64,000 nt of DNA from Acidobacteriota bacterium. GTDB taxonomy: Bacteria; Acidobacteriota; UBA6911; RPQK01; JAJDTT01. Of this stretch, positions 927 to 63,492 are shown one piece after another. Each line of letters starts with the position of its first letter. Positions within the stretch are counted from its first letter, which is position 1. The stretch is from NCBI GenBank assembly GCA_965209055.1, contig OZ242374.1, positions 416,001-480,000 of the forward strand, read 5' to 3'. The position numbers were made by a program, and so were the translations under genes. A model generated the notes under the pieces. The model saw only the letters and a list, made by a program, of their open reading frames with translations. It did not search any database and was not told the origin of the DNA.

Positions 927-941
927 TCGGGGATAGACTCC

Positions 942-1644: not shown

Positions 1645-1726
1645 GGGTAGAGGGGGAGGGCCCAAGGCGTCAGGAGAGAGATGATGCGGGTGAATGACCA
1701 CGGGGGCGAAGACAGTAGGAAAATCC

Positions 1727-2110
1727 ATGCAAGACATCAGCGTCTCTCTTACGGTTATCGTATTCCTGGCTCTGGGTGCTCTGCTTGTCGCCGCGGTGGC
1801 GGTCCCGGTGGAGATCGTGGGCACGCTTCAGCACGTCAACTCAGTTCCACCCGGCGGAAAGATCCTGGTGGTTCAGGGGATGCCCCATTTGAGTTTCACC
1901 ACGTATGAGGTGGAGGAAGACAGGCGGTTCCGATTCACGCGCGATTCCGAGGGGCTTCTGGTGATCCATGCAGTGGCCCGGGGCCGTTCCTCTACGGAAC
2001 GAGCGAGCGATGCCGTGACCACAAGAGCCGTGGTCGTGAACCTCACGCTGCCCTCAGGTCGGTCCATGCCGGTTCGAGTGGTCGATTCCGAGGGCAACGC
2101 CGTTCGTTAG
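1727..2110 (+). CDS. Small hypothetical protein with N-terminal hydrophobic segment
   Basis: ORF MQDISVSLTVIVFLALGALLVAAV... with AGGA upstream, downstream of the ECF-like promoter. Confidence 0.55.
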   Translation: MQDISVSLTVIVFLALGALLVAAVAVPVEIVGTLQHVNSVPPGGKILVVQGMPHLSFTTYEVEEDRRFRFTRDSEGLLVIHAVARGRSSTERASDAVTTRAVVVNLTLPSGRSMPVRVVDSEGNAVR

Positions 2111-3099: not shown

Positions 3100-3115
3100 T
3101 CGATTTCCCCGACGG

Positions 3116-4831
3116 TCAATCCCCGCTCCCTGCCGGAATCACGGGGAGCACCAGGTGGGAGGGGTGCCGGGCGTTGTGGTAGACGGTCTGTCTGGCCACC
3201 ACGATCTCGTCGCTGGTCCCCAGCGGCTCGCCGATGTTCTGATTGCGGGCAAACCGGGGGAAATTGCTGCTGGAAATTTCCAGACGGATCCGATGCCCCG
3301 CCTTGAAGACGTAGCTGGTCTCCCACAAGCTGATGTCGTACTCGTAGACCTTCCCCGGCTCGATCAGCGTCGGAGTCTCCAGGGAATCCCGGAAGCGGGC
3401 TCCCCGGATCCCCTCGCAGACGTGAATCGCCTGGCCGTCCGGCTGCACGTCGCTCAGCGTCGCCGTCCAGTCGGTGTCGACGGCGCTGGAGGCCGCGTAG
3501 AGTTTGAAGTCGACGGGGCCGGTGACTTCCATGTCCCGCTCCAGCGGTTCCGAGGTGTAGACCAGAATGTCCTGGCGGCTCTGAACGGAACTCCTGTCTT
3601 TACGCCCCCGAATCTCCCCGTGGGTCGAGATCTGTCCTCCCAGAGTCGGCACCGGGTCTTCCGGATCGTAGGCGTAGCGGTCCGGCGGCTCGTCCCGGGC
3701 GGGCGATGACATCAGAGCGCCGTCCCCTTGGTCACCGTTGGCCTTGCCCGAACTCCTGATGTAATACTTCGTGAACCGGGTCCGGGCCAGGGGCCACTCG
3801 TTCTCGAAGCGCCAGACGTCGGGGCCCATGACGAAGATCTTGATGGGGGGTTCGGCGTCGATCCCGTTCTGGATGCCCTTGAGCCAGTAGTCGTACCACC
3901 TCAACTCCACGTCGAGCAGCTCCGGATAGGAGTTCGTCCCCCCATGGACCCAAGGGCCCACCAGGATCTTCGTCCCTTTGCGCGCCGCCTCGGAGCCGCC
4001 CTCTTCGGTGAAGCCCTTGAAGTTCCGCCAGCCCTCGTGAACCAGGTTGTCGTACCAGCCGGTCATGAAATAGGCCGGGACCTGGATCTGCCCGTACTTC
4101 TCCTTGATCCCGTAGGCCTGCCAGTATTCGTCGTACCTGGCGTGGGCGAACCAGTCCTTCACGTGCTGGACCTGGGGGAAGTCGTCCACCGCCGCCATGA
4201 GGGGCAGGCGGCGGTAATGGGGGTCTTCCGCGGGTAGGATCTTCTGGGTCTGGGCGCCCTGCTTGGTGAAGAGTCCGAACTCGAAGACCACGTTCAACTG
4301 CATGACCCCGTCGTTGTAGAGGTGTCCGAAGTTGGTCTGCTGGTTTTCTCGGGGCACCAGGCACTTGAGGTAGGGGCTGCCCAGGGGGGCCGGCATCACC
4401 TGGGTGAAACCGTTGTAGGAGATCCCCATGGTGCCGATTTCTCCGTTGGACCATGGTTGTTGCCCCAACCACTGCTGGGCGTCGTAGCCGTCGCGGGGTT
4501 CGTTCACATAAGGAACCCAGGTCCCTCCCGAGTCGTAGCGCCCGCGGGAATCCACCAATGCGACGGCGTAGCCTCTCTTGGCGAAGTACTCGGCGTGTTC
4601 GTTCTGGAAGGGGGCCCGGAAGTATCTCAACAGCATGAGAGTCGGAAACTTGCCCGGCGCATCGGGGCGAAAGACGTGGGCGGCCAGGTTGACGCCGTCC
4701 CGCATGGGGACGGGCATTTTGCTCTCGTCGATGATCTCGTGGACGGGTTGCGAAGGGCCGGCCGGTTCAGGAACCGAGCAGGCCGCAATCAGCAGCAGTA
4801 GACCAGGGAACAGTCGCACCGGCGAGATCAT
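3116..4831 (-). CDS. CocE/NonD family serine hydrolase (lipoprotein signal)
   Basis: PMRDGV, DSRGRYDSGG, GISYNG nucleophile elbow, GWYD, GPWVH, C-terminal SSSNFPRF. LIAAC lipobox. Confidence 0.92.
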   Translation of the reverse strand: MISPVRLFPGLLLLIAACSVPEPAGPSQPVHEIIDESKMPVPMRDGVNLAAHVFRPDAPGKFPTLMLLRYFRAPFQNEHAEYFAKRGYAVALVDSRGRYDSGGTWVPYVNEPRDGYDAQQWLGQQPWSNGEIGTMGISYNGFTQVMPAPLGSPYLKCLVPRENQQTNFGHLYNDGVMQLNVVFEFGLFTKQGAQTQKILPAEDPHYRRLPLMAAVDDFPQVQHVKDWFAHARYDEYWQAYGIKEKYGQIQVPAYFMTGWYDNLVHEGWRNFKGFTEEGGSEAARKGTKILVGPWVHGGTNSYPELLDVELRWYDYWLKGIQNGIDAEPPIKIFVMGPDVWRFENEWPLARTRFTKYYIRSSGKANGDQGDGALMSSPARDEPPDRYAYDPEDPVPTLGGQISTHGEIRGRKDRSSVQSRQDILVYTSEPLERDMEVTGPVDFKLYAASSAVDTDWTATLSDVQPDGQAIHVCEGIRGARFRDSLETPTLIEPGKVYEYDISLWETSYVFKAGHRIRLEISSSNFPRFARNQNIGEPLGTSDEIVVARQTVYHNARHPSHLVLPVIPAGSGD

Positions 4832-43939: not shown

Positions 43940-46900
43940 ATGAAGATTCGAAACACCAGATCACTTGGGTTATTGGCCGTCGCGTTTGCCTTCGGGCTTG
44001 CGTTGACCACCGTCACGGTGGCCCAGGTCAGCAAGGGTGTCATTCTCGGCACCATCACCGACCAGACCGGCGCCGTCATGCCGGGCGCCGAGGTGGAGGT
44101 CGCCGCCACCGGGACCGGCGTCACCCGGCTCATGGTCACCGGCGAGGATGGCAACTACCGGATCGTGAATCTCGATCCCGGAGAGTACTCGGTTCGGGCC
44201 CTGCTGCCCGGCTTCAAGCCCAAGACCGTTCAGGGAATCATCCTCCAGGTGGACCAGCGGGCGCGGATCGACGTGGAGCTGGAGGTGGGCGAGGTCGCCG
44301 ACGAGGTGACGGTCCAGGGAGTCACTCCCATCATCGCCACCGACCAGGCGACGGTGGGCGAGGTCATCGAGCGGGAGAAGGTGCTGGAGCTGCCGTTGAA
44401 CGGGCGCCAGTTCCTTCAGTTGGCGGAACTGACGCCGGGCGTCCAGAGGACCACCGTCGGCTACATGGAATACAGCGGCGGCAGCATCTCGGCCAACGGG
44501 ATGTCCGACCACTCCAACAACACCATGGTCGACGGGGTCATGAATCAGGAGAGCGGCGCCGCCCGCATGAACTTCTCCCCCAGCATCGACCTGATCCAGG
44601 AGTTCAAGATCCAGACCAACGTCTATGACGCCGAGTTCGGCCGCAGCGGCGGGGCCCAGATCAACATCGTCACCAAGCGCGGGTCGCTCGACTACCACGG
44701 CGCCCTCTACATGTTTCACCGCAACGACAACCACGAGGCCCGGAACTTCTTCGCCAGGAGGATTCCCGAGTTCCGGCGGAGCCAATTCGGAGGCTCGTTC
44801 GGCGGACATATTCCGGGCTCGGAGGACGATTTCTTCTTCTTCAACTACGAAGGACAGCGGGCCGCTCGGGGCTTGACCGTTCCCATCAGCGTGCCTCCGG
44901 CGGATATCAGGAACGGTGACTTCTCGAGCCTGCTGGCGCCGGGCACAAACTGCATGGACCACAGCAACAACAAGGGTTGCATCTATGACCCGGCCACCCT
45001 GGATCCCGCGACCGGCACCCGGCAACCGTTCCCCAACAACATCATTCCCAATGACCGGATCACGCAGCAGGCGAAGTTCATCAACCAGTTCTTCCCCAAT
45101 CCGACGAGTGCGGGATTCTCCGGGAACTACGTTGCCAGCCCGGACCGGATTCGAGACAAGGACCAGTACTCGATTCGTTACGATCGCGACTTTTCCGACA
45201 GTGACTCCATCACCTTCCGCTTCACCTACCAGGACCGCAAATTCCTGGAGCCGCAGCCGCGGGGCAGCACGACACCTCTCGTCGGGTTCCGGCAGAATCA
45301 GGACCTGAACGGCGAAAATCACAAATTGGGATGGACGCACACGTTCAGCCCCACCACCATCAACTCCTTCAACTTCGGATTCAGCCAGTACCACCAGATT
45401 CGGGACAACGAGACGACGCTGCCGGACCTCTACGTGCAGGGAGGCAGCCGGGGCGCCGTCACCGGACCCGAATTCTTCGAGGGGGCGGGCATCACGGGAG
45501 TGGCCCCCGACCGGCAAAAGGCGGGAATACCGACCATCAACATCAGCGGCTGGAGGACCATTGCCGACGACACCTTCGCGCCGTTGGACAATCCCTACAA
45601 CAACTACGTCTACTCGAACACCTTGAACAAGGTTCAAGGCAACCACTCCTGGAAGGTGGGGATCGAAGTCATTCGCAACGCCATGGACATGGCGTTCGAG
45701 GCCAACAGCCGGGGCATCATCAGCTTCTCGCCCCGCTTCAGCGTCGCCAGCGTCGGAGCCCCCGGCGATCAGTTCAATGCCTGGGCCGACTACCTGCTGG
45801 GAGCGGTCACCAGTTCCGGCATCAACGGCGCACTGCTGCAGCTCAACACCAAGCAGACCTGGTGGATGTTCTTCCTCCAGGATGACTGGCACGTTCATCC
45901 GGACCTCACTCTGAATCTGGGAGTGCGCTACGAGATCTGGCAGCGCCCCTATGACGCGGAGAACCGGATCACCGGCATCGACATCGCGTCCGGCCAATGG
46001 GTGTTCGCGGAGTCGATTCCGACCCTGCCCGGCACACCCCCCAATGCGGTCACCAATGACGAATTTAACTACGATCGCAGCCTGCAGAAAGTCGGCGGGG
46101 CTGAAATGAACGATTGGGGCCCGCGGGTCGGTTTTGCCTGGCGCCTGTTCGGCGACAACAAGACGGTGCTCCGGGGTGGATACGGCGTCTTCTACAGTTG
46201 GCAGGTTCTGGACATTCCCATCACCATGGGACTGGGCCGGCCCTGGGTGCCGCCGACCAGCATCTCCAGCGACCGGGACGTTCCCGCCATCAGTTTCGGC
46301 AGTCCCTTCGGTACGACTGTCGTTCCCGCCACGGGAGGCCGGGGCCTGATCCGGGACAACCGAACCCCCTACCTGCAACAGTACTCCCTCAGCCTCGACC
46401 GCGAGCTGCTTCCCTCCATGGGAGTCGAAGTCGCCTACGTCGGGAATGCAGGCCGCAAGAACGTATTCAATTTCGGCCTCAACAATCCCTATCCGGGTCC
46501 CGAGCCCACGGCCGAGCGGAGGGCTCTCTGCCGCAACGCCGGCATCTGCGACCTGTCCGGGATCAGTGGGCCGGTCAACTGGGGCACCAGCAACTACAAC
46601 GCGCTTCAGGTCAAGTTGCGCAAAGAGATGGGACCGGATGGACTCATGCTCCTGGGCGCCTACAGTTGGGGCAAGGTCCTGGGGACCTCCATCGCGGGAC
46701 CCCAGCTCTGGGAAGGCCAGCCGATTCGCGACTGGAACCGGAACTGGAAGGCGGACACCGGTCCCACCAGGTACGACACGCGTCACCTCGCGTCTATCAG
46801 TTGGGTCTACCAGTTGCCCTTCGGACGGGGGAGGCCACTGGGCGGCGACATCGGACGAACAGCCGACCTGATCTTCGGCGGCTGGAAACTGGGTGGAATC

Positions 46901-47326
46901 GGCACCTTCCAAACCGGAGCGTTTCTGACCCCCAGAGACATCTTCAATGCCTCAAATGCCGGGGGAACGCGACCCAACCTGCTGCGCAATCCCAACGACC
47001 TGGGTCACTCGTCCCGGGATCAGATGATCAACCAGTTCTTCCACACCGGCGACAGGTACTTCGCACGGACCGCCCCGTTCACTTTCGGCAATGCCGGAAC
47101 GGGGACGATCGTGGGGCCGGGACTGCAGCTTTGGGACATTTCACTTTACAAGGACTTCTACGTGGCTGAAGAACAGCGGGTGCAGTTCCGCGTCGAGTTC
47201 TTCAACGCCTTCAACCATGTGAATTTCGGCAATCCCAATACCAGCTTCGGCTCGGCGGCGTTCGGAACCATCCGCAGCGCCGGCGACGCCCGGCAGGTCC
47301 AGTTCGGCCTGCGCTACGACTTTTAG
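43940..47326 (+). CDS. TonB-dependent receptor, Oar-like
   Basis: ILGTITDQTGAV.PG, LPLNGRQF.QL..LTPGV, IQEFKIQTN, FLQDDW, LNLGVRYE, terminal RQVQFGLRYDF. Confidence 0.93.
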   Translation: MKIRNTRSLGLLAVAFAFGLALTTVTVAQVSKGVILGTITDQTGAVMPGAEVEVAATGTGVTRLMVTGEDGNYRIVNLDPGEYSVRALLPGFKPKTVQGIILQVDQRARIDVELEVGEVADEVTVQGVTPIIATDQATVGEVIEREKVLELPLNGRQFLQLAELTPGVQRTTVGYMEYSGGSISANGMSDHSNNTMVDGVMNQESGAARMNFSPSIDLIQEFKIQTNVYDAEFGRSGGAQINIVTKRGSLDYHGALYMFHRNDNHEARNFFARRIPEFRRSQFGGSFGGHIPGSEDDFFFFNYEGQRAARGLTVPISVPPADIRNGDFSSLLAPGTNCMDHSNNKGCIYDPATLDPATGTRQPFPNNIIPNDRITQQAKFINQFFPNPTSAGFSGNYVASPDRIRDKDQYSIRYDRDFSDSDSITFRFTYQDRKFLEPQPRGSTTPLVGFRQNQDLNGENHKLGWTHTFSPTTINSFNFGFSQYHQIRDNETTLPDLYVQGGSRGAVTGPEFFEGAGITGVAPDRQKAGIPTINISGWRTIADDTFAPLDNPYNNYVYSNTLNKVQGNHSWKVGIEVIRNAMDMAFEANSRGIISFSPRFSVASVGAPGDQFNAWADYLLGAVTSSGINGALLQLNTKQTWWMFFLQDDWHVHPDLTLNLGVRYEIWQRPYDAENRITGIDIASGQWVFAESIPTLPGTPPNAVTNDEFNYDRSLQKVGGAEMNDWGPRVGFAWRLFGDNKTVLRGGYGVFYSWQVLDIPITMGLGRPWVPPTSISSDRDVPAISFGSPFGTTVVPATGGRGLIRDNRTPYLQQYSLSLDRELLPSMGVEVAYVGNAGRKNVFNFGLNNPYPGPEPTAERRALCRNAGICDLSGISGPVNWGTSNYNALQVKLRKEMGPDGLMLLGAYSWGKVLGTSIAGPQLWEGQPIRDWNRNWKADTGPTRYDTRHLASISWVYQLPFGRGRPLGGDIGRTADLIFGGWKLGGIGTFQTGAFLTPRDIFNASNAGGTRPNLLRNPNDLGHSSRDQMINQFFHTGDRYFARTAPFTFGNAGTGTIVGPGLQLWDISLYKDFYVAEEQRVQFRVEFFNAFNHVNFGNPNTSFGSAAFGTIRSAGDARQVQFGLRYDF

Positions 47327-48266
47327 GAGGGGCTTTTTTGCTACCGCCCCGTCTCCACTATTGCGGTCAGCAAGCGTAGAGGGGGGACTGCCGTCCCCTA
47401 TACGATTGTAATCTACTAAGTATCTGATAATAATAAATTTATGATCTATTCTCCCGATCTGATTACCTCATTGAATCCCACCTTCTAAACGGGATTCCAT
47501 TCGACCCTATTGGAGGTCCGTGGACTCCATGGACGTACGCGTTCGGTCAAGCCGTGGAAGAGTTTCGAGCCTCGACTCCAATGTTTGAAGAGCCTGCGCG
47601 CTCCAGGAACAGGCGGCGTACAGTCGGAGCCGACCGGATCCGTTCGGCCAGTACTTGCTAACGACGTATACTCCGCCGATGATCCTTCACCTTATAGATA
47701 GATGCCCATGCATCTCCACCCTTCTGGATCCGGGTTCTTCGCCGTGGGGCGAATCGTACCACGGCTCCAGGGAATCGACATAAGCGGTCAGGTCCTACAG
47801 GACGAAGCCACGGCGATGACTTTTGCCGCTATTTTGGGGCCAACCCCTCCAAGGCGGGTGAAAAAACTGTCGTCAACGACTTTCGCAGAAAGCCGCTACG
47901 CGAGTTGAAGAAGATCGAAGAGACGCGGCTGGGACTCAACTACAATCTGGCGCGGGGCGTCCTCATTGTCGAGCCATCGGCGCCGTCCGTTCCCGTCCTC
48001 ACCGAGTAGGCGGCGCGGTTCTTTCCACACCCCCAGGGGCTTTTCCATGCACAAACGCGTAGGAGGTCTCATCAAAACGACCGTACAATCTCGTAGAGTT
48101 TTCTTCATATAGTTGAGAACCAGTTGTTAGTTACAAGTGGAGCGACCTTGATGTGGAAACCGACAGGAGGGGAATCTGGACTCGGACCCGGAGCCAGCAA
48201 GGTAGCGGCGGCTCATTCCTCAAAGGCGAGTTGGACGGCAGGGGGCAACAAACTGGCGGGAGCAAG

Positions 48267-49370
48267 ATGCACCCGAAACTGAAAGAAATTCTCTTACCTG
48301 CTTACCAGTGTGTTGGATTTACCGGCACCTGTACTTCATTGATGCAGTGGGCTCCACACCTGGGGCATGTGCCGAGAGGATTCTACGGAGCGACGGGAGA
48401 TTTGGAGGAAGTCACCTTGGTTCTGGTTCTGGCAGAACCGGGGAATCCCAGCCCCGATCCAGGACCAGAAGAATGCTATTCTGACGTTGACTCCGCGTTT
48501 GCCTTCACCGGACACTGCTTCCTGACTGCCGGTGGTCAGGGACACGAAAACGTACGGAATCTCATCTGTAGATGCTTCCCTGGATTGTCCTTGGTGAACG
48601 CCATGCGGAAGGTTTGGATTACTGAATCGGTGCTGTGCTCTGCTCCCTCCCCAGGAGCTACTGTCGGAGTTGACATCGAGCGCTTCTGTGCAGAGCGGTT
48701 TCTCCTGAGTCAGTTACGCTTGTTCCCACTAGCCACGATAGCGGCCATGGGTTCCAAGGCCATGGCTCGGCTCACACGGTACCAGGCCCAAATCCCCAAC
48801 CGAATCGTGAAGTGTGGTGCAGTCTTTCCTCCAGGATGCAACTTCAAATCCACCAGAGATAGTTGGGACAGGCTTGTAGAAATTGTCACCGAACAGGGCA
48901 AAGGAGAGTCTGCTCGTGGGGAGGAGTACCCAGTAAAGTTGAGATCTTCCCCTCCGCGCCGCCGGGGGCTCGGATCTCGTGCCGAAAGACGAGCAAGTGC
49001 ACCACGACCCGGACCGATTCCGCATTGGGAAAACGATCTGAGCCTACTGAAGCACCTGATCGAGATTATTCGGTCCGAGTTGCCGCCTGATTGTCAAACT
49101 ACGTGCATCACTCCGACCAAGAAGAGAGTGAGCTTGGATATCCCCTATCCGTTCTCCCGGCTGACCAACTCGCGGAAGTTGGTCAAGATGTTCGTCCGCC
49201 CAACGCAAGGTGTCCATGTCATGGTGCCACCGGACCTAGACCTGGAAAGTCGAGGCTGGGATCTTCACGAGAAGCAGGACAGTGCGGGAGATCAGAAACT
49301 TCTCTTCCCCTTCAATAAGGCTGAAACGTTGGCCAGAAAGCTGGGAAAGGATTTGGCCACGTTCCTTTGA
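48267..49370 (+). CDS. Uracil-DNA glycosylase-like fold protein with extra C-terminal domain
   Basis: LVLAEPG, WITESVLC, C..RFL..QL and IAAMG..A align by eye to family 4/5 UDG motifs. Cys positions fit an Fe-S cluster. The canonical HP motif is replaced by VFPP. Confidence 0.55.
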   Translation: MHPKLKEILLPAYQCVGFTGTCTSLMQWAPHLGHVPRGFYGATGDLEEVTLVLVLAEPGNPSPDPGPEECYSDVDSAFAFTGHCFLTAGGQGHENVRNLICRCFPGLSLVNAMRKVWITESVLCSAPSPGATVGVDIERFCAERFLLSQLRLFPLATIAAMGSKAMARLTRYQAQIPNRIVKCGAVFPPGCNFKSTRDSWDRLVEIVTEQGKGESARGEEYPVKLRSSPPRRRGLGSRAERRASAPRPGPIPHWENDLSLLKHLIEIIRSELPPDCQTTCITPTKKRVSLDIPYPFSRLTNSRKLVKMFVRPTQGVHVMVPPDLDLESRGWDLHEKQDSAGDQKLLFPFNKAETLARKLGKDLATFL

Positions 49371-49473
49371 GGATCAGTCCGGCGCCTGGTGACTTGAGAC
49401 GCCACCGGAGCCGACATTCGAGCCGCCGCTTCGAGGATTCCTTCGATCTGGAGAGATTTGTATCATGGGCTGC

Positions 49474-51327
49474 ATGAAAATGCCTGTGAAATACATCGTA
49501 CTGGTCACTCTGATCTCCACTGGTCTTGCGTCGGAGCAAAACCCAATCGACTTTGGTCGTCCCTCGCACGTTGTCGGCGGAGAGAGCGTTACCGGTGGCG
49601 AATTCCCCTTCGTGGCGAAAATCATCTATTACGGCAGCAGCGTCGGCTGCACCGGCAGTCTCATTGCTCCCAACAGGGTACTCACCGCCGGACACTGTGT
49701 GGTGGATTGGAGAACACGAACGCTTTCCGTAGGATTTGGATCATCGCGGTCGGCGGGATCCAGTTTCAAAGTCACTCGTAGAATATGGCACCCAGAATAT
49801 TCAGTTCAAGAGTACGATATCGCGATTCTTGAGTTCGAGCCGCCCGTTTCAATCCAGCCCGTTCGCGTGCTGTCTTTCGAGGACGAGCTGCAATATGCCC
49901 CCAGTGGAGGGCAAGGAATGGCTGTGGGCTGGGGCCGGACGGTCTCCGGCGACCCGGATTCGTTGCCCGCTAGGTTGCACAAGGTTTCGGTGCCGATCTA
50001 CACGCAGGCAGACTACTAACGGATATTGAACGAGCTGCGCGATCAAGGGAAAGATCCACAGCCGCCATCCATCCATGAATTGATCCTCTGCGCCGGTCAG
50101 GAGAATCAGGCTCCTGCGCACGGTGACAGTGGTGGGCCGCTGTTGGTACCAACCCCCGAAGGTTGGGCACAGGTAGGAGTCTTATCGCAGGCGACACAGA
50201 ATCGACAACAGACGATCTACTACATGGGGCAATATACTCGTACGTCTTTCTTATACGACTGGATATTCCCCTCGGATGTTGGGGATCAACCCGAGGACCC
50301 ACCCGAGGACCCACCTGAGACAATCGATCCCTATCGCATCCACTTTGCCCATTTCGGCACTGGCGATGGACTGGAAACCGATTTGTTGCTGCTGAATCCG
50401 CAGTCGGATGTCGCGGTCGAAGCTTCAGTGGAAGTGTTCAGCACGGACGGTACATTGCTTTTTCCGACTCGTCAGGTCGCCGCTCCACCGGCAGGGATGG
50501 TGGAATGGACGCTCCCTGTCGGTGACGAACTTGAAACAGGAAGCATCGTGGTGACGTCGCCTGCAAGGCTGTCGGGAGTCCTGCGGTTCAGATACAGCGA
50601 TGGCGGCGCCACTGCCATCAGTGCGACGCCGTTGGGGAGCAGTTTTGTTGTTCCCGTTAGTAACCAAGCCGAGCGTATCGGATTGGCCATACGAAATGCT
50701 GACGCTGAAGCTCTTGACGTAGCGCTCAAGTTGGGAACGCTTCCGAGAGTCTTCAAGACCATCCCTGGCGAGGGCCAAATCGCCGCCTTCATCGACGAGT
50801 ATTTCCCAAGTCAAACCGACCAGGAACTTGAAGGAACTCTACTCGTGCAGACGGAACCGCCAGAAGGCGAAATCACCGTATTGGCGTTAGAGTTTGTTGG
50901 TGACTCATTGGTGACATTACCTGCGACGGTATTGACAACTCCGATCATGGATAATCAACGAAAATTCAGCGATGGGGAGTCAACGGCGACTATCGAGTAC
51001 GAGCTTGATGCCGCCAAGGGGGAAGCCAAAATGGAGGCCGTTATCGTCAATAACGGTCCCACGCAAGCGTTCACTGTATATTGGCGACCCATCGACGCCG
51101 ATTGCAATTCAACTCACCCGGGTGGTGGTTGGTGGTCGGTGATGTATGAAAAGTCTGTCAGCGGTGGGTCTACGCAGACGTTCACTCTGAACACGAGTGG
51201 AGACAGGAGCTACCCGATCTCTGCGAATACGAAATGGTTGGAATGGTGGGTCCGGACAGCGAAGGAGCGGGAATGGGAGAATCTGGAACCTAAGACGAAG
51301 TGCGAGAAGCCATTCCGAGGACTGTGA
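49474..51327 (+). pseudogene. Secreted trypsin-like (S1) protease with surface-type C-terminal domains, interrupted by an in-frame TAA at 50017-50019
   Basis: VVGG, CTGSLI, LTAGHC, YDIAIL and GWG precede the stop. GDSGGP follows in the same frame. Confidence 0.85.
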
Positions 51328-51494
51328 GATCAGACCGACTATTCCCGCGAGTCAAAGCTCTCCTTCCGCCCCCTGGCGCGAAGACTTCCGCAGGCCTTCG
51401 CAGAATCGGTTTCTGGTGCGACGTGTGGACTTCCGATTCAAGGAACCGGATCGACTCTTGTCGTCGCTCCCTTTCCATAGAGAGGTGCTAGCGC

Positions 51495-51750
51495 CTATTC
51501 TGCTGTATGGAGATCCTCTCCACCAAATTGCGGCTGGCGCGCCGTCGGTGCCGGTCGTAGATCTGGGTGTTGTGGGGATGGGCGCGCCCGGACAGGTACT
51601 GGATGTCCCCGAGCGGGTCGTTCTGACTCTACAGATCCGTCACCACTAGGTAGTGGAATGGTGGGGTGGGAGGATCTTCGGCAACCTAGCGACCTTGAGC
51701 CAGCGCTTAAACATCTGCTCCACGGCGAGTGGTGAAAACAACGGTCGGAT
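51495..51750 (-). pseudogene. Decayed C-terminal remnant of an XerC/D-like tyrosine recombinase
   Basis: QMFKRWLKVARLPKILPPH, then after a frameshift VVTDL*SQNDPLGDIQYLSGRAHPHNTQIYDRHRRRASRNLVERIS (catalytic Tyr region). Confidence 0.7.
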
Positions 51751-51751
51751 A

Positions 51752-52062
51752 GCCTTCCCGCAGGGATATTTTGGAAGGGAGCGACCCCCCCAGGGGGTGT
51801 GGCGCAGACGTAAATTGCGCCACACCCCCGCGCCCGCACCGGGCAGGAAAAAGGGGGGGTCGCTCCCTTCCACCTCCGCTTTCCCCGTGCGGGCACGGCG
51901 GAGCCGAAAACATGGCCGTAACAGCATGAGCGACAAAGAGATCGGGGAAATCGCGTGTGTAAGTTGGCAGACTCCCATGATGTAAGTTGCCCCCGTTGTC
52001 TCCCTTACACTCCCGGATCGACACGGTGGGGCGCTCTGTACCCGTCAAAATGAGCTCCCCGG
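51752..52062 (-). other. Structured non-coding element copy A (oriT-like)
   Basis: Perfect 20 bp IR 51772-51791/51853-51872 enclosing a perfect 14 bp IR 51793-51806/51816-51829. ATCCCTG next to the stem. TGTAAG motifs at 51958, 51981 and inverted at 52004. Confidence 0.65.
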
Positions 52063-52079
52063 CAAGCGTGTCGCCCGCC

Positions 52080-52262
52080 ACGAGAGCGTCGCGAACGTCG
52101 TCGTCGATCTCCACGCCGGCGGCGCGATCTTCCGCCCCTGGTCGCCACTCGATGGCCGGTCTCAGCGAGGCCCTGACGCTGCCATAGCCGTCGAATCGGC
52201 CCGCGTCCCTTTCAGCACACCCCGCATTTCTGGAAGAAGATTGCCTGTTCAATCCGCCAGAT
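52080..52262 (-). pseudogene. Possible decayed C-terminal remnant of a gene like the C-domain of 61528-63492
   Basis: RIEQAI ... FDGYGSVRASLRPAIE ... GVEIDD resembles IIGQAV ... LARYGGFLNAL ... RIRIDR. Same position relative to the element as the intact gene is to copy C. Confidence 0.35.
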
Positions 52263-52375
52263 CACTCCGTCCAGCCATGGGGCCGTCCACAGACGCTTGT
52301 ACGAGCACTGGCACGCGGCGGCTTGCCCACCGCGCCGTTCCGTGCCGCAGCGCCACGCGCTCAGGCGATCCAGAC

Positions 52376-52686
52376 GCCTTCCCGGCAGGGATCATTGGGA
52401 CGGGAGCGACCCCCCGAGGCGATGGCACGGAGAGTGCCCATCAGCCTGCCCCGCTTTGCCGATCCGGGAGGCAAAAAAGGGGGGTCGCTCCCGTCCACCT
52501 CCGCTTTCCCCGAGCGGCACCGCCGAGCCGCGAGGCGAGCCGTAACCCGAACGAGGACAGCAAGTTAGAGGAAAGTCGCCGTGCACGGCGAAGAGCCCTC
52601 ATGGTGCACATGCCCTCCGTTGTCTCATGTGCACTCCCCGAGCGGCACGGAACCCCACTTTTCAGCGGTCAAGATCGACCTCCCGG
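52376..52686 (-). other. Structured non-coding element copy B (oriT-like)
   Basis: Perfect 18 bp IR 52398-52415/52479-52496 with different inner stems. ATCCCTG next to the stem. GTGCAC at 52581, 52604 and 52629. Confidence 0.65.
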
Positions 52687-52740
52687 AATCCGGCTCGAAC
52701 CCCAGATCACGAAGCCTGCCGGGAGAACCACCACGGCGGA

Positions 52741-53976
52741 TCAACGGAGCCGGCCGGCCACCCGTTCCGGACTCTCGCCAGCCAGATAGCTCGCCCAGTC
52801 CTCCATGAGCCGACGCCGACGCTCGAACAGGTCCGTGCGCCGGTACGCCGCCTCGACCTTGTTCTTCACCACATGCGCCAGCGCCGCCTCGACCACCTCG
52901 CGTGGATGATCCGTCTCCTCGGCCGCCCAGTCCCGGAAACTCGACCGGAACCCGTGCGGCACGGCGGCGATCCCGTTCCGGCGCAGCAGCTTGCGCAACC
53001 GGCCGGAGCCGAGCGGCTTTCCGCCCCTTCGGGCGAAGATCAACCGGGTGGCTCCATGATCCAGCGTGCGTGCCTTCTCCAGGATCTCATTCGCCCGGCG
53101 GCACAAAGGCACCCGGTGCGCCCGTTTGGTCTTCATGCGCATTCCGGGAACCGTCCACGTCCTTTGCGCCGGATCGATCTCCGGCCACTCGGCCCACCGC
53201 ACCTCGCCCCACCTCGCCGCCGTGAGCACCAGGAACTCGAAGGCCAGCAGGGACACGGGCATCGCGTTGGAGGCCCGCACCTTCCGGAGGGCCGCCCCCA
53301 CCTCGCGATGCGGCAAGGCCGGCATGTGCCGCACCACGTCGTCCTGTGCTCCGAGCACCGACACGACCCGGTCGCAGGGGTTGTCGGTCCGGTATTCCAT
53401 CGCCACGGCCCACTCCAGGACCGTGCGGAGGCGCTGACGCACGGTCCGGGCCGTGCGCGACTTCACGTGCCAGATGGGCACGAGGATCTCCAGGACGTCG
53501 CCGCTGGTCACCTCCGAGACCGGCATCCGGCCGATGTGAGGAAAGGCGTAGCGTCGAAAGCTCGCCATCCAGTCGTGGGCCTGCCTCTGATTGCGCCAGC
53601 CGGCCCGCTTCTGCTCCACCACCCGCTCGGCGGCTTCGGCGAAGGTCGGCATGTTGCGCGTGCGTCGTCTCTCGGTCAGGGGATCTCCACCCTCGCGGGC
53701 CAGCTTGCGGTTGGCCCGCGCCTTCTCGCGGGCCTCGGCCAGGGACACCAGTGCCACACCGCCGAGTCCGAAGTCGCGGCGGCGGCCGCGGATGACGAGG
53801 CGTTGGATCCAGCTTCGTGCTCCGTTAGGCTTGACGAAGAGGTAGAGTCCGTTGCCGTCGCAGTGTTTGCCCGGTGGGGCGGAGCGCACGAAAGCGGCGG
53901 AGAGCGCCTTGTGGGGGTGGCGGCCCTTCGGCTTGGTCTTCCGGGGCAAAAGGGGAGCACTGATTACATCACCCAT
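52741..53976 (-). CDS. P4-like tyrosine integrase with arm DNA-binding (DUF4102-like) domain
   Basis: DGNGLYL.V...G.RSW, GLG....VSLAEAR, LTAARWGE, HRVPL, HGFRSSFRDW, LAH, AAY.R. Catalytic residues intact. Confidence 0.95.
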   Translation of the reverse strand: MGDVISAPLLPRKTKPKGRHPHKALSAAFVRSAPPGKHCDGNGLYLFVKPNGARSWIQRLVIRGRRRDFGLGGVALVSLAEAREKARANRKLAREGGDPLTERRRTRNMPTFAEAAERVVEQKRAGWRNQRQAHDWMASFRRYAFPHIGRMPVSEVTSGDVLEILVPIWHVKSRTARTVRQRLRTVLEWAVAMEYRTDNPCDRVVSVLGAQDDVVRHMPALPHREVGAALRKVRASNAMPVSLLAFEFLVLTAARWGEVRWAEWPEIDPAQRTWTVPGMRMKTKRAHRVPLCRRANEILEKARTLDHGATRLIFARRGGKPLGSGRLRKLLRRNGIAAVPHGFRSSFRDWAAEETDHPREVVEAALAHVVKNKVEAAYRRTDLFERRRRLMEDWASYLAGESPERVAGRLR

Positions 53977-54147
53977 TACACCATAATAAACGGGATGGAG
54001 ATGGATATCAAGGGACGTCAGGGGAGGAAGAAACGGGGTGAGAACAGGTCTAAACTAAAGAAAAACAACCACTTAAAATATATTCCGGGATCTCTTGGGA
54101 TATCTCTGGATTCAATGGGTGTGTTGCCGTCCCCCCTACCCCCCTGT

Positions 54148-54176
54148 CGGCGGTAGGAAAGTCGCCGCTCCCCTAC
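54148..54176. repeat. GTAG-type REP palindrome
   Basis: Reverse complement reads GTAGGGGAGCGGCGACTTTCCTACCGCCG. Confidence 0.7.
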
Positions 54177-55624
54177 GCCATTATTTCGGTGACGGCGTGT
54201 CCGTGGACGTCGGTCAGGCGGCGTTCGATGCCGTTGTGGTAGTAGGTGAGGCGTCTATGGTCGATCCCCAGCAGGTGAAGGACCGTGGCGTGGTAGTCGT
54301 AGATGGTGACCGGGCTCTCCGCCGGCTTGTAGCCCAGCTCGTCTGAAGCTCCATAGATGAACCCCGGCTTGAGGCCGGCCCCGGCCAGCCAGCAGGTGAA
54401 GCACTCGGGGTGATGGTCCCGTCCCAGGGCGCCTCCCTGGGCCACGGGCGTCCGGCCGAACTCGGTCACCCCCAAGACGAGCGTGTCCTCCAGCATGCCG
54501 CGCGAATCCAGGTCCTGGAGCAGGCCGGCGACGGGACGATCGTACTCCAGCGCCATCTTGGTGTGGTTTTTCTCCAGTCTGCCATGGGCATCCCAGCTGT
54601 TTCCCGGGCCGCCGTTGTAAACCTGGACGAATCGAACTCCGCGCTCCAGCAGGCGGCGCGCCAGCAGACAGCGGCGGCCGAACGCTTCGGTTTCTTTCGC
54701 GTCCAGGCCGTAGAGTCGGCGGGTGCTCTCGCTTTCCCGCTCGATATCGGCAATTTCAGGGACGCTCAACTGCATCCGCGCCGCCAGCTCGTAGGATTTG
54801 AGCCGCGCCTCCAGCGAGCTGTCGCCCGGATGCGCTTGCTGGTAGACGCGATTCATGCGTGTCAGCCACTTCAGGCCGGCGCGCCGCTGGGCGGGCGGGA
54901 CAGATTCGGGAGTGGTCAGATCATGCAGTGCATCGCCGGACGTGCGAAACGGCGTCCCCTGGTGGGAAGCGGGCAAGAAAGAAGCGCCCCACTGCAGAAC
55001 GCCTCCCCAGGGGTGGTCGGCGGGGTCGGGCAGGACGACGAACGCCGGCAGGTCTTCGTTCTCGGTCCCCAGCCCGTAGCTGATCCAGGCCCCCATGCTG
55101 GGAAAGCCGCTCAGCGGAAAACCGGTGTTCATCTGGGCCACCGCCGGCATGTGGTTGGCGCTTTTGGAGACCATGGATTGAATGAGCGTGAGATTGTCGG
55201 CGCACCCGGCCAGATGCGGCAGCAGGCTGCTCACCCAGAGTCCACTCTCGCCGCGCCGGCGGAACTCGAACGGACTCCCGAAAAGGTGGCCGGCCTCTCC
55301 GAAGAACGTGGTCATTTTGAACGGGGTGCCGTTGCGCCTGGTGAGTTCGGGTTTGTAGTCCAACGTGTCGAGGTGGCTCATGCCGCCGAGTGCGAACACC
55401 TGGACGACGCGCTTGGCTCTGGGAGTAAAGTGCGGCAGTTGGCTCGACCCGGAGGCTGGGGCGTTCCCGCGCGCCGCACCCGCGGCCAACGCTTCCCGAT
55501 GGGTCAACCACGAGAGCGCCATCCAGCCGAATCCCGCTCCGGCATCGAAGAGCCATCGGCGGCGGGACAGCGGGCTGAATCGGCGTTGTATTGCTGAGAG
55601 TCCGGCCATACGGCAATCCGTCAA
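54173..55624 (-). CDS. DUF1501 domain protein (sulfatase-like, Tat signal)
   Basis: SRRRWL, GGMSHLD..DYKP, PSMGAW.SYGLG, LARRLLERGVRFVQ, WDAH, EFGRTP, GRDH. Confidence 0.93.
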   Translation of the reverse strand: MTDCRMAGLSAIQRRFSPLSRRRWLFDAGAGFGWMALSWLTHREALAAGAARGNAPASGSSQLPHFTPRAKRVVQVFALGGMSHLDTLDYKPELTRRNGTPFKMTTFFGEAGHLFGSPFEFRRRGESGLWVSSLLPHLAGCADNLTLIQSMVSKSANHMPAVAQMNTGFPLSGFPSMGAWISYGLGTENEDLPAFVVLPDPADHPWGGVLQWGASFLPASHQGTPFRTSGDALHDLTTPESVPPAQRRAGLKWLTRMNRVYQQAHPGDSSLEARLKSYELAARMQLSVPEIADIERESESTRRLYGLDAKETEAFGRRCLLARRLLERGVRFVQVYNGGPGNSWDAHGRLEKNHTKMALEYDRPVAGLLQDLDSRGMLEDTLVLGVTEFGRTPVAQGGALGRDHHPECFTCWLAGAGLKPGFIYGASDELGYKPAESPVTIYDYHATVLHLLGIDHRRLTYYHNGIERRLTDVHGHAVTEIMA

Positions 55625-59874: not shown

Positions 59875-61126
59875 ATGCCTCTCACTGCTATTGCCATCCG
59901 TGATGCCAAACCCTCCGCGAAGACCCGAAAAATGTTCGACGGACGCGGTCTGTACTTGGAATTAACTCCCCGCGGCAACAAGTGGTGGCGCCTGAAATAC
60001 CGCTTCGCAGGCAAGGAGAAGCGGATCTCCCTGGGTGTCTATCCGGACGTATCTCTGAAGCAAGCCCGGAAGTCGGCGCCAGGAGGCCCGCCGGCTATTG
60101 GCCCAGGGGATCAATCCCAGCGAGCACCGCAAAGCGCAGAAGGCCGCGAAAGAGCAAGGGGCCGCCAACAGCTTCGAAGCGGTGGCGCGGGAATGGTTCA
60201 GCAAACATTCTCCCAACTGGGCCACCAGTCATGCCAGCCGGGTCCTCAGCCGACTGGAGCGAGATGTTTTCCCGTGGATGGGCAGCAACCCCGCGCCTAC
60301 CATCACCGCACCCGAATTGTTGACGGTCGTTCGCCGGATCGAACAACGGGGGGCTCTGGAGAGTGCCCACCGGACCCTTCAGATCTGCGGTCAAGTATTT
60401 CGCTATGCCGTGGCCACTGGAAGGGCGCAGCGTGACCCTTCGGGTGACTTACGGGGTGCGTTGCCGCCGTTCAGGACCAAACACTTTGCAGCGCTCACCG
60501 AACCGAAGCAGGTGGGTCCCTTGCTGCGAGTGCTGGACGGCTACCAAGGGACACTGATCGTGCGTTGTGCCCTGCGCTTCGCTCCGTTGGTCTTCGTTCG
60601 ACCTGGAGAGTTACGCCAAGCTCAGTGGTCGGACATCGATCTGGAGGCGGCCGAGTGGCGCTACACAGTCAGCAAGACCGAGATTCGCCACATCGTTCCG
60701 CTCTCCCGCCAAGCGGTGGAGATCCTGCGCGAACTACACCCTCTGACCGGGCAGGGGCGCTATGTGTTTCCCAGTGCCCGCACTCCGAGGGGAGACCGGC
60801 CCATGAGCGACAATGCCGTTCTCGCCGCCCTGCGCCGTATGGGAATCGGGAAGGAGGAGATGACGGGCCATGGGTTTCGGGCGATGGCGAGAACGATCCT
60901 GGATGAAGTGTTGGGATTTCGTCCCGACTTCATCGAGCACCAGTTGGCCCACGCGGTGCGGGATCCCAACGGGCGGGCTTACAACCGCACGGCCTATCTC
61001 CCGGAACGGAGAAAGATGATGCAGGAGTGGGCCGACTACCTCGATCAACTGAAGGCTGATGTCGTTCCGATGCATCCAAAGCGACTGGATCAAAACTCAG
61101 GAATCCACCTGAGCGGTGGTCTCTAG
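59875..61126 (+). pseudogene. P4-like (IntA) integrase with a +1 frameshift near 60073
   Basis: MPLT...DGRGLYL...KWWRLKYR...GVYP.VSL, then a frame change. Removing one base (e.g. T60073) restores ARKRRQEARRLLAQGINP. RPGE, HIVPL, HGFR, LAH and AYNR intact. Confidence 0.88.
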
Positions 61127-61237
61127 TGCCGTCTGGTTTCCCGTCGAAAAAACCCAAGACATCCAGAGATCGCCTGCAAGGGAAGGGAACCGGCTTTCAA
61201 TCTCCTGGGCGGCCTGTGGCGAGCGGCTTTCAATGAG

Positions 61238-61324
61238 TGCCCGGGGTGGGAGTCGAACCCACATGGAGGGAGAACCTCCACAGGATTTTAAGTCCTGCGC
61301 GTCTGCCAGTTTCGCCACCCGGGC
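61238..61324 (-). tRNA. tRNA-Leu(TAA), CCA not encoded
   Basis: GCCCGGG acceptor stem, D-loop TGGCAGAC, anticodon arm CAGGA-CTTAAAA-TCCTG, long variable arm, GTTCGAC T-loop. Confidence 0.96.
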
Positions 61325-61527
61325 ATCCATCCGCCCCTCCAACGGGGACGGCCGGCCCGATCGTATCCAGGAAGCGCGCCCGGAAGCCACCACCGCCGGG
61401 CCTCCACGGCCGATGAATCCGTCTCCTGCCGCCAGGGAATATCCCGGCAAGGGTTTTCTCCGGAGTGTATTCTCAATCCACGAGATCCTGGTTCCGGACC
61501 CGCACTCCCGGAAGAGGTGCGATCCTC

Positions 61528-63492
61528 ATGCTCTGGCGCCGCCGAGTCCCACCCCCCGAACCCCGGCCGGTCCTGGAGTCCTTCCTTCTGCGGGTCCTCG
61601 GCCAGCTCCGCAACCGCCGGTCCCCCTGGCAACAACACCAGCCCTCCGAATACCGGATCTGGCCCGAGCGCTTTCCTTCCCACCAGCCCTACGCCGGGGT
61701 CCAGGGACTGCACCTTCTCTGTCGGGCCGCCGAGCGGGGATACTCTGACCCCCTTTGGGCCACCCGGGACCGGATCGAAGCCGCCGGGGGCCGGATTTCC
61801 AAGGATCAGACTGGTGTCCTCCCCCTCCCGGCCGGGGACCTTGATTCCCCGCCGCCGGAGAGCCCCCCGGCACAGAACGGCTCCGAAGAGGGCTCGGCCG
61901 CTCTTTTCAACGTCGAGCAGGCCACGGGCCTGTTCCTCCCGCCGCGTGACGATCGGCCCCCGCCTTCCTGGGAGGTCTACAAACGGGTCGAGCGTCTGCT
62001 CGAAGCCAGCGGCGTCGGCCGCCGCCACGAACCCGGTGACCGGGCCTACTACCACCTGGGAGAGGACCGGATCGTCCTGCCGCCGCAGGACCGGTTCCCC
62101 GGCGCCCGGCGCTATTACCAGACCCTTCTTCACGAACTCGGCCACGGGACCGGCCACCCGGACCGGCTCAACTGTCCGGGCCTCGCCGCCGCCCTTCGGG
62201 ACGGGCCCGACTCGACCGCTGCCGCCCGCGAAGAGCTCCGGGCCGAGATCGCGGCCCTGATGACCGGCGTCCGGATCGGCCTCGGCCACCGGCCCCGCAA
62301 TGGGGAGTTCTACACCAAGCACTGGATCCAACTCCTGGAGTCCGATCCCCGGGAACTGGTCCGGGCCGCTGCCGACGCCTGGCGCATGAGCGAGGCCCTG
62401 CTCGCCGGCGCCCGCGAGCTCAAGGAGCGGACCACCGAGCCGTCCTCCGTCCGTTCCGGCGTCCGGGAGGCACCGCGGCTCCGGATCCGACAGATTGCCC
62501 CGGCGCTCGCCTCCCCTCCGCTCCCCGCTCTGGGAGCGCCCCGTCCGGCGCCGGGCGCCGACGTGCTGGAGCGCTTCGGCTGGCACGGGGAAGAGGCCGA
62601 GTGGATCGCCTTGGTCTGCCGCCACGGCGGCTGGTTCACCCGCGCCCAGTTCTGCGCCCATTTCCGTTGCCGGAGAAACCGCGCCCTGCGCTTCGTCCGC
62701 CGCCTCGTCGCACGCCGCCACGGCGTCGAGGAGGACCTCGACGGCCTGCCCACCACCACCCGGACCTGCCGCATCGCCGCCAAGGCCTTGTACCGCGCGC
62801 TGGGCCTGGAGCGCGTCCCCCACCCCGGATCTTCCGCTTGGGTCCGGCTCCGCCGTCTGCTCTCGCTCGATTACGTCATCGATCACCCCCAGCGGCGGTG
62901 GCTTCCCACCGGGCGGGAGAAGGCCTGGGCGCTGGAGGCGCTGGGCCTTTCCCGGCGGCTGTTCCCGTGCCGCCACTATGCCGGCCATGCTCAGGGACGG
63001 AGCCGCTACTTCCCCCGCAAGCTCCCGCTGGCCCTGGAGGAGGACCGGGCGACCTTCGTCTACGTCGATCCCGGCCGGGACACCGACTCGGAACTGCTCT
63101 CGTGGGGGGCGGAGCACGCCCCGCTCTGGGCCTCGCTACGCGCACAAGACCACCCGGTGCACGTGGTCGCGGTGGCCCGCGACGACCTCCGCCGGGAGCG
63201 GGCCGAAAAGGTCCTGCGCCGCTGGGCCGGCCCTGGTCCCGTGGCCGAGTTCGAGCCCCTGTCCCCGGAGGAGGAGCAGGTCATCCGCATCATCGGGCAG
63301 GCCGTCCGGACCAACGACCGGGAGTGCCTCGCCCGCTACGGCGGCTTTTTGAACGCCCTGGACCACCGCCAGGCGTTGCTGGAGCGGGCCACCGCCCCCA
63401 TCCCTCAAAACCGCATCCGCATCGACCGGGGCCGAACTTGGCTCTCGGTCCGGATTACAGCGGAAACGGAGGTAGGATTGTGGAGCGCCTGA
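61528..63492 (+). CDS. Polyvalent fusion: ArdC-like ssDNA-binding domain, zincin-like MPTase, and a wHTH/replication-relaxation-like C-domain
   Basis: PW...Y.G...RGYSDP.W.T....GG.I.K...FNVEQ (ArdC-N). AYY....DRI.LP, TLLHELGH.TGH..RL, REELRAEI (MPTase). After a Pro-rich linker: FGW...EAEWIALVC.HGGWFTRAQF, RRLLSLDYV, FVYVDPG. The C-domain assignment is inference. Confidence 0.8.
   Translation: MLWRRRVPPPEPRPVLESFLLRVLGQLRNRRSPWQQHQPSEYRIWPERFPSHQPYAGVQGLHLLCRAAERGYSDPLWATRDRIEAAGGRISKDQTGVLPLPAGDLDSPPPESPPAQNGSEEGSAALFNVEQATGLFLPPRDDRPPPSWEVYKRVERLLEASGVGRRHEPGDRAYYHLGEDRIVLPPQDRFPGARRYYQTLLHELGHGTGHPDRLNCPGLAAALRDGPDSTAAAREELRAEIAALMTGVRIGLGHRPRNGEFYTKHWIQLLESDPRELVRAAADAWRMSEALLAGARELKERTTEPSSVRSGVREAPRLRIRQIAPALASPPLPALGAPRPAPGADVLERFGWHGEEAEWIALVCRHGGWFTRAQFCAHFRCRRNRALRFVRRLVARRHGVEEDLDGLPTTTRTCRIAAKALYRALGLERVPHPGSSAWVRLRRLLSLDYVIDHPQRRWLPTGREKAWALEALGLSRRLFPCRHYAGHAQGRSRYFPRKLPLALEEDRATFVYVDPGRDTDSELLSWGAEHAPLWASLRAQDHPVHVVAVARDDLRRERAEKVLRRWAGPGPVAEFEPLSPEEEQVIRIIGQAVRTNDRECLARYGGFLNALDHRQALLERATAPIPQNRIRIDRGRTWLSVRITAETEVGLWSA

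Follow-up and report, generated by a model that had tools for sequence, protein, structure and literature searches.

We examined a 64,000-nucleotide stretch of an Acidobacteriota genome, called the window here at its full length (G000:C1:416001-480000; the genome is a single contig of 6.08 Mb with 62.8% GC), which contains an element, named E2, lodged in a short GC-rich extragenic palindrome between two convergent genes. E2 comprises 6,736 bp (window 47389/47399 to 54124/54134; 6,746 bp counting both cores), and its sole conserved gene encodes a tyrosine integrase of P4/CP4-57 type. GC content is ~62% in the flanks, 49-59% within E2 and ~70% over the integrase. The features of the locus are given below, where attL and attR are the left and right junctions, attP and attB the attachment sites of element and host, E1 and E3-E5 further copies of the element, F2a an element of a sister clade and U a repeated unit.

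43940..47326, plus strand: left flanking gene, a TonB-dependent receptor-like outer-membrane protein (TBDR; CarboxypepD_reg and OMP_b-brl_4)
47327..47375, plus strand: upstream part of the composite repeat, a degenerate hairpin (GGGGC...GCCCC) like those of repetitive extragenic palindromic (REP) sequences and a spacer ending GCAAGC, aligned with 14 other attB-type sites
47376..47388, plus strand: attL, host 5' arm of the target hairpin, GTAGAGGGGGGAC
47389..47398, plus strand: attL core TGCCGTCCCC, the loop and first 6 nt of the 3' arm; identity block common to attR
47399..47655, plus strand: E2 left end, putative P' arm of attP, with an AT-rich start and repeated ATCTGAT/GATCT motifs
47507..47686, minus strand: remnant like the 5' end of a different tyrosine-recombinase gene (~25 genome copies)
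47656..51753, no strand: cargo slot of 4.1 kb, unique to E2, GC 51-59%
48153..49370, plus strand: cargo open reading frame (ORF) of 405 amino acids (aa), no family match
49465..51327, plus strand: cargo gene for a trypsin-like serine protease, interrupted by an in-frame TAA at 50017-50019
51752..52024, no strand: unit U copy 1, ~270 nt, structured non-coding, 87.6% identity with the copy in element F2a
52376..52656, no strand: unit U copy 2, degenerate, ~70% identity
52741..53976, minus strand: tyrosine integrase, 411 aa, Arm-DNA-bind_3, Phage_int_M and Phage_integrase
53977..54124, plus strand: E2 right end, putative P arm of attP, 100% identity with E4
54125..54134, plus strand: attR core TGCCGTCCCC
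54135..54171, plus strand: host 3' remainder, CCTAC (end of the hairpin arm), a C-run and one REP at 54148-54171
54173..55624, minus strand: right flanking gene, DUF1501, convergent with the TBDR gene

The target hairpin and its empty site

At the left junction, GTAGAGGGGGGAC-TGCC-GTCCCC gives way to AT-rich element DNA, whilst the right junction consists of element DNA, TGCC-GTCCCCCCTAC, CCCCC, 3 nt and the REP at 54148-54171, in the place where the original prediction had put one. Common to both is the 10-mer TGCCGTCCCC, which, as that prediction stated, is repeated at 47389 and 54125, with exactly two copies in the window (47389-47398 and 54125-54134, both on the plus strand). Rejoining the outer flanks gives the target hairpin, GGGGGGAC-TGCC-GTCCCCCC, followed by a C-run and REPs and starting 49 nt after the TBDR stop codon; its 9-bp stem folds at -10.7 kcal/mol (DNA parameters) and it equals an intact copy elsewhere in the genome. 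With the same parameters attL folds at -6.3 kcal/mol, attR at -1.0 kcal/mol and the rejoined element ends at -0.9 kcal/mol, therefore the full hairpin is kept at neither junction, as had been claimed. E2 supplies its own loop and 3' arm, continued by TCTAC or TATAC, and attL therefore keeps most of the hairpin, including a 6-bp perfect stem.

That the site is a hairpin and not a tRNA gene, as first proposed, agrees with the RNA searches. ARAGORN found no tRNA or tmRNA near the target, the window holding only a tRNA-Leu at 61237-61324, and Rfam gave no credible match at E<=1 across window 47000-54500. The sole hit there, a microRNA model at 47240-47299 (E=0.14), lies inside the upstream gene and far below its gathering score. 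A scan of the minimal elements at E<=1 returned nothing, thus neither the attB mosaic nor unit U corresponds to a described RNA family.

The integrase carries the three domains of its type: Arm-DNA-bind_3 (PF13356, residues 25-105, 64.8 bits against a cut-off of 27), Phage_int_M (PF22022, 88 bits) and Phage_integrase (PF00589, 50.3 bits). It also matches the N-domain of a 'CP4-like integrase' in PDB (3jtz/3rmp, E=6.6e-8) and a phage integrase central domain (2khv, E=9.7e-15), and is matched over its full length by NCBIfam PRK09692 (24-398 on profile positions 12-393 of 413). The assignment to the P4 family in the original prediction is borne out by these matches. As the PRK09692 score of 139.4 bits lies below the cut-off of 434 bits, the protein is, judged by its sequence, a relative of PRK09692 and not an equivalog. 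Residues R255, K282, H341 and R344 are invariant in 109 of 109 aligned homologues, H368 is found in 105 (4 gaps) and Y378 in 106 (3 gaps), the gaps being truncated rows; by their motifs we take these six residues to be the candidate R-K-H-R-H-Y catalytic set.

To locate the empty site, contigs from four public runs (X1, X2, X15 and X19) were aligned on window 46300-55300. A contig of 12,052 nt from X2, a run labelled sponge metagenome, covers 46300-47388 and resumes at 54125-55300, skipping 6,736 bases; at the joint, 10 letters fit either side and a single copy of TGCCGTCCCC is present, whilst the flanks, ~1.1 kb each, differ from the window by 11 and 14 letters. The contig thus joins the 3' flank of the TBDR gene to that of DUF1501 at the 10-mer and is the predicted empty site to the base. 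A contig from X15 contains the element without differences, and is not independent support because X15 is possibly the source sample. No joint with a long flank crossed the element in X15, X19 or X1; short-sided joints from 47398 to 54139 (sides of 22-27 nt, extra letters between) belong to other hairpin copies and not to the E2 locus.

The TBDR 3' ends have orthologues at 89-94% identity in five genomes of the same genus (G001, G002, G004, G005 and G007), and no E-type element is present at these five loci. In G005 the spacer between TBDR and DUF1501 holds an uninterrupted ATAGAGGGGGGAC-TCCC-GTCCCCC hairpin with C-run and REPs, so the hairpin is intact there, whilst the G007 spacer contains an unrelated 1.3-kb insert; repeat mosaics of this intergenic kind change rapidly across the genus. 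For G004, the locus retrieved did not reach the DUF1501 end. Two side observations concern these spacers: the G007 insert starts with a 165-nt repeat copy of the type targeted by clade F2 (below) and holds two small ORFs, and in G004 (G004:C1:1613208-1617236) three tandem copies of the final ~400 nt of the TBDR gene follow one another at ~545-bp intervals.

The exact 16-mer of the hairpin core is found in all nine genomes of the genus, in 1-14 copies each, compared with 0 for the reversed control. G002 has 9 hairpin copies and G003 has 11, each genome having only one partial integrase match. The hairpin repeat is therefore the host's and not a footprint of the element, and the claim that it is an abundant host repeat with unoccupied copies stands. 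In other genomes of the genus, E-clade integrases (G008, 93%; G001, 87%; G006, 86% identity) abut GTCCCCCC-TA followed by a C-run and a REP.

Copies of the target and of the element

The hairpin core, GGGGACTGCCGTCCCC, has 12 exact copies in the genome and 3-4 variants (~15 in total), compared with 124 hairpins of the broader GGGGAC-N(3-8)-GTCCCC class (~12 expected) and 306 strict matches for REP proper. The attB subtype does not reach the hundreds of copies per genome typical of REPs and bacterial interspersed mosaic elements (BIMEs), therefore the target is a low-copy subtype inside REP/BIME-like mosaics. The suggestion that REP/BIME repeats serve as attB thus applies to the mosaics and to this one subtype, and not to the REP itself. 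Likewise, three positions in the window (14553, 19361 and 36973) had been named as intact copies of the same composite unit; they do hold GGGGAC/GTCCCC-type hairpins near REPs, but these belong to the broader class with 6-nt loops and not to the TGCC-loop subtype, which occurs within the window only at 47383. The copy at 36973 is not intact, having an imperfect 3' arm (GCCCC), and matches neither hairpin pattern searched.

Ten target sites are uninterrupted, seven of them among the 12 exact cores and three being one-mismatch variants. Together with the five occupied sites, after rejoining, they share a composite arrangement: a REP-like or GGGGAC-type hairpin upstream, a spacer of 30-50 nt, GGAAAGCGTA-n-AG, the hairpin, CTA-n, the C-run and 1-3 REPs. 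The hairpin, the C-run and at least one downstream REP are present in 15 of 15 aligned sites, most of which also have a REP-like hairpin upstream. A search for a cognate REP-associated tyrosine transposase (PF01797) gave two weak matches of 30.8 and 23.6 bits against a cut-off of 23.

At the remaining five of the 12 exact cores the conserved AT-rich left end of an E-type element follows at once, and the partner 10-mer lies 2.5 to 16.4 kb away with the conserved right end just before it. The five elements are E1 (2,505 bp), E2 (6,746 bp including both cores; the element of the window), E3 (16,396 bp), and E4 and E5 (3,169 bp each). Their integrases are 91-100% identical, all five frames are open, and all five genes lie between the same 10-mer at the same type of hairpin, as the original prediction expected of paralogues. 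Right ends of the E type are confined to these five copies and one sister element. E4 and E5 share 98.8% identity over 3,169 bp; E2 is composed of an E4-like backbone (98.3% over 2,382 bp), a 267-bp left end (77% identity with those of E1, E4 and E5) and 4.1 kb of cargo after the left end. These identities suggest recent spread. The E elements thus range from 3.2-kb integrase-only forms to 6.7- and 16.4-kb cargo forms, with one fixed cargo slot.

The cargo itself differs between copies. In E2 the slot (element positions 268-4365) has no counterpart in E4 or E5; the trypsin-like protease is the only family match inside E2 besides the integrase (Pfam), and the small cargo ORFs have no match in Pfam or PADLOC. 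The stop codon divides the protease gene into two ORFs (49465-50019 and 50026-51327), the family match being followed by a C-terminal region of ~350 aa without one, and the protein has weak matches to the Avs1b and LmuA protease models. The cargo of E3 occupies the same slot over ~12.5 kb (within genome 801500-818500) and is a defence-type cluster encoding Vsr, a C5 cytosine methylase, HATPase_c_3, Z1, DUF4420 and AIPR; its AIPR gene is split into two ORFs. The recombinase-like remnant at 47507..47686 has a reading frame that differs between E2 and E4 and is not conserved.

We are confident that E2 is an integrative element placed by its P4-type integrase into a hairpin of the REP mosaic, and that it behaves in the multicopy manner of an insertion sequence (IS). 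Entry would occur by conservative site-specific recombination between the attP of the element and a host attB, the latter consisting of the loop and 3' arm of the GGGGGGAC-TGCC-GTCCCCCC hairpin in the REP/BIME-like extragenic mosaic. As the identity block is TGCCGTCCCC, strand exchange should fall inside it, and the exact bases cut probably lie among these ten. The two stem arms may act as inverted core-binding sites, and the ~255-bp left and ~148-bp right ends would carry arm-type sites for the N-terminal arm-binding domain; in the right end, three direct GGGAT/TGGAT-type repeats spaced 10-11 bp apart adjoin the core. With ~15 copies of the hairpin per genome many sites are open to the element, and its multicopy occupancy makes it behave like an insertion sequence built on an integrase. 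The elements may be active at present and may move between cells. The sites may be harmless landing places, as was proposed, and E2 does lie between two convergent 3' ends.

A different origin for the 10-bp repeat would be target-site duplication by a transposase encoded elsewhere, with the integrase as a passenger. Either model accounts for direct repeats at the termini and for the lone copy in the empty site; however, the 10-mer is identical in five of five copies and is part of the hairpin continuation borne by the element, the 3.2-kb copies have no credible ORF besides the integrase, there are no terminal inverted repeats, the conserved ends being unlike each other, and in the sister clades described below the core sequence changes along with the integrase clade. 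We regard this explanation as extremely unlikely.

Several findings weigh against integration by the integrase as set out above, or narrow what it explains. The 10-mer is short: at least two matches to TGCCGTCCCC occurred in 9 of 100 shuffles of the window, and the genome holds 85 copies where ~40 are expected from composition. The repeat alone is therefore weak, and becomes decisive because both copies coincide with the ends of homology to the four other genomic elements and with the joint of the empty-site contig. That contig in turn fits a site never occupied and one precisely excised alike, and no circle or attP junction was among the joints listed, which came from contigs only and are uninformative either way. 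The E elements yielded no excisionase; ORF lists, codon-position GC and substitution periodicity gave a coding signal for the integrase alone, with no credible ORF in the rest of the backbone, and the sister clades have a 135-aa gene that is absent from E1, E2, E4 and E5. The G001 and G002 spacers lack the hairpin and have other REP arrangements. Finally, one G001 integrase lies beside an inverted hairpin and two E-like relatives (G004 and G023, 85-86% identity) are at another site, therefore specificity is not absolute.

E1 and E3, moreover, lie inside a segmental duplication of ~98% identity over at least 6.9 kb, therefore the five copies represent four independent loci, not five. This raises the question of whether all copies could be segmental duplications of one old insertion, the 'empty' hairpins then being footprints of the element. 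We consider this very unlikely, as the flanks of E2, E4 and E5 are unrelated, E1 and E3 are only 89% identical although their flanks are at 98%, the hairpin is multicopy in G002 and G003, two genomes that yielded no more than integrase fragments, and it belongs to the broader class with its 124 copies. Elsewhere in the genome (2757200-2760000) a solitary E-type left end (84% identity) lies beside a degenerate hairpin, without integrase or right end and with a U copy ~2.4 kb off; it is probably a decayed or non-autonomous copy.

Sister clades and the wider lineage

The genome contains 16 full-length integrase paralogues (tblastn): the five of the E clade, one at 81% identity and ten at 62-65%. 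The att sites of the sister clades were found via their conserved left ends, exact-match searching being mostly uninformative. Each clade uses a different target. The five copies of clade F2 have an 11-bp core, CCCGGCGGACT, within a ~165-nt palindromic repeat that occurs in >20 copies, of which ~10 are intact; in one F2 copy the orientation to the repeat is reversed. In the five copies of clade F3, the core is CCT(A)GCGG, just after the large nested hairpin of unit U. A CCCGCAGGG-type site serves the 81% element and the related elements of G001 and G004, at one orthologous locus and in both orientations. Repeat targeting is thus wider than the original prediction held.

Unit U, ~270 nt long, has a 14-bp inner hairpin nested in an outer stem of 18 bp and occurs in >60 genome copies without an Rfam match. 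Comparison of coordinates shows that 15 of the 16 integrase genes have a U copy no more than ~1.5 kb downstream, and U is 85-92% identical between clades whose integrases share only ~65%. The attB of F3 lies inside U, therefore F3 elements insert into other elements of the family. F2 and F3 also possess the 135-aa gene, without a Pfam match, between U and the integrase gene.

Another recombinase also came up: a 73-nt left-end match to ~25 loci appeared at first sight to be a tRNA and was rejected as such, being the 5' end of another tyrosine-recombinase gene. This gene (genome 783072-784250, minus strand, and ~25 other loci outside the window) encodes a protein of 393 aa (counted between stop codons) in which HDLRR and GHS...MRY motifs were recognised by eye, and is present in ~25 near-identical copies; many of these have a U copy at most a few kb away, and its 5' fragment is embedded in E left ends. 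It is probably another proliferating recombinase element.

Instead of duplex DNA, the E2 integrase might recognise the folded hairpin, as a cruciform or as single-stranded DNA during replication or transfer, in the way that integron integrases act on attC. The stability of the target hairpin (-10.7 kcal/mol) and the start of the identity block exactly at the first loop base are consistent with this, as are a variant site at genome 794993 which is changed on both arms with pairing kept, and the sister-clade cores, which are small dyads beside or inside hairpins. Conversely, the protein has the arm-binding, core-binding and catalytic layout of duplex-acting P4/lambda-type integrases, the element ends, with their repeated motifs, resemble classical attP arms, a duplex core site, too, would show inverted arms on both sides of a short spacer, and one Gemmatimonadota clade (below) targets a repeat without an obvious hairpin. 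Recognition of a folded strand is unlikely in our view.

Beyond the genus, a scan of one genome per species gave a lower bound of at least 582 integrase relatives, of which 80 loci were kept. The latter are from metagenome-assembled genomes of Acidobacteriota (labels including Vicinamibacterales, Terriglobia and Candidatus Versatilivorator), Gemmatimonadota (Longimicrobiales, Candidatus Palauibacter) and one Gammaproteobacteria, and many records hold several copies each. Right ends of relatives keep a CTGGAC/CTGGAT-type repeat pattern, whilst the junction sequence depends on the clade; in one Gemmatimonadota clade the targeted repeat lies within coding DNA and has no evident hairpin. A quick maximum-likelihood tree was built from 109 rows, after removal of those with stop codons or <330 matched residues; some rows are one locus taken from two collections. 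On this tree, target labels cluster by clade, with 18 changes compared with a shuffled mean of 58. The hairpin-target group is nested among the E-like rows, and a relative of 45% identity, which has a tmRNA gene as neighbour, diverges close to the base with a long branch. In four Vicinamibacterales contigs (L102-L105) the junction sequence is the 5' part of the integrase gene of another copy, therefore some clades insert into their own kin, forming tandem arrays.

The window also holds a second P4-type integrase (~28% identity; 59875-61126 and the 61465-63492 region) by the tRNA-Leu(taa) at 61237-61324. It is split into an Arm-DNA-bind_3 ORF and a Phage_int_M/Phage_integrase ORF, an ArdC-like zincin protein follows, and a homologue of the 135-aa gene of F2 and F3 lies beside it at ~62905-63204; this neighbourhood is a classical tRNA-associated island.

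These observations can be joined in a broader reading, which we offer tentatively and would sooner doubt than affirm as a whole. E2 may be one of the transposon-like integrase elements that form a large, as yet undescribed superfamily in assemblies of Acidobacteriota and Gemmatimonadota, many of which apparently derive from sponge and coral samples. P4-type integrases would have repeatedly left RNA genes for short dyad cores lying within abundant repeats (the REP-associated hairpin, the 165-nt palindromic repeat, REP-like GCGGCGGC sites and their own 270-nt unit), and integrase-only forms of ~3 kb would multiply within genomes and gain defence cargo in the fixed slot. Our guess for unit U is a signal that acts in cis on mobility (an origin of transfer or packaging, for example) or a regulatory RNA; as a mobility signal it would explain the spread of gene-poor elements between cells.

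Comparison with known systems

P4-type integrases are treated as single-site enzymes tied to tRNA and tmRNA genes, and island finders look for their elements there. A repeated hairpin as target turns such an island integrase into a multicopy, IS-like vehicle, which can place cargo, for example the methylase/Z1/AIPR defence cluster, at many neutral sites and which tRNA-anchored island finders will miss. The close clades with different short cores offer a natural series for target change in tyrosine integrases, which is of interest for engineering.

The closest known systems are the P4/CP4-57 islands, which share with E2 the three-domain integrase, an integrase gene adjoining one att site, and an element-borne 3' part of the target through which one junction restores the structure (the tRNA 3' end in their case); the 45%-identity relative beside a tmRNA gene links the two. 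Williams is said to have reported in 2002, in Nucleic Acids Res, that the crossover usually lies in a stem-loop of the tRNA. The islands target tRNA or tmRNA 3' ends, whereas the target of E2 is a multicopy extragenic hairpin and not an RNA gene, and a multicopy target explains the multicopy element (one genome holds five E elements and 16 full-length integrase genes of this lineage).

Integron integrases and their attC sites resemble E2 in combining a tyrosine recombinase with a multicopy, imperfect-hairpin site. They act on folded single strands and move promoterless cassettes; the E2 integrase, in contrast, possesses an N-terminal arm-binding domain, and what it moves is its own gene along with the att arms. 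Filamentous prophages of Neisseria also use a chromosomal repeat as site, integrating in abundant dRS3 repeats via a Piv/IS110-like transposase and not, as far as is known, via a tyrosine integrase, unlike E2.

Tycheposons, known from Prochlorococcus, are driven by tyrosine recombinases. They are described as transposon-like and cargo-carrying, at several sites per genome in seven tRNA genes (10.1101/2020.12.28.424599). On that account they are, like the E elements with their cargo that includes a defence island, small cargo carriers with transposon-like behaviour; Tycheposons however enter tRNA genes and E2 a hairpin repeat, and the likeness drawn here is one of lifestyle.

Insertion sequences that target REPs are the nearest match in site choice. 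The survey by Tobes and Pareja (2006, PMC1525189) names five families, IS3, IS110, IS4, IS256 and IS5, and the word 'tyrosine' is absent from its text; examples of such elements are IS1397 and ISKpn1 (IS3) and ISPpu9, ISPpu10 and ISPa11 (IS110), and IS621 (IS110) appears as a reference-list entry in PMC11208158. Like E2, these elements use abundant extragenic palindromes as safe, repeated sites with a fixed insertion position (PMC1525189). They differ in using DDE or DEDD transposases, E2 having a tyrosine integrase with attP arms, and E elements carry cargo of up to ~12.5 kb. The DDE/DEDD transposase and short terminal repeats of such insertion sequences are absent from the E elements, in which only the integrase ORF is credible and the ends are dissimilar. 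Landing in a hairpin also contrasts with the expectation raised by Pseudomonas, whose mobile elements are reported in 'REP deserts' (PMC3390384). No report of a tyrosine integrase with a REP-type attB appeared in the literature searched, which left most subscription journals and supplements outside. Set beside these systems, E2 is an ordinary type of enzyme with an unusual, repeated target and the lifestyle of an insertion sequence.

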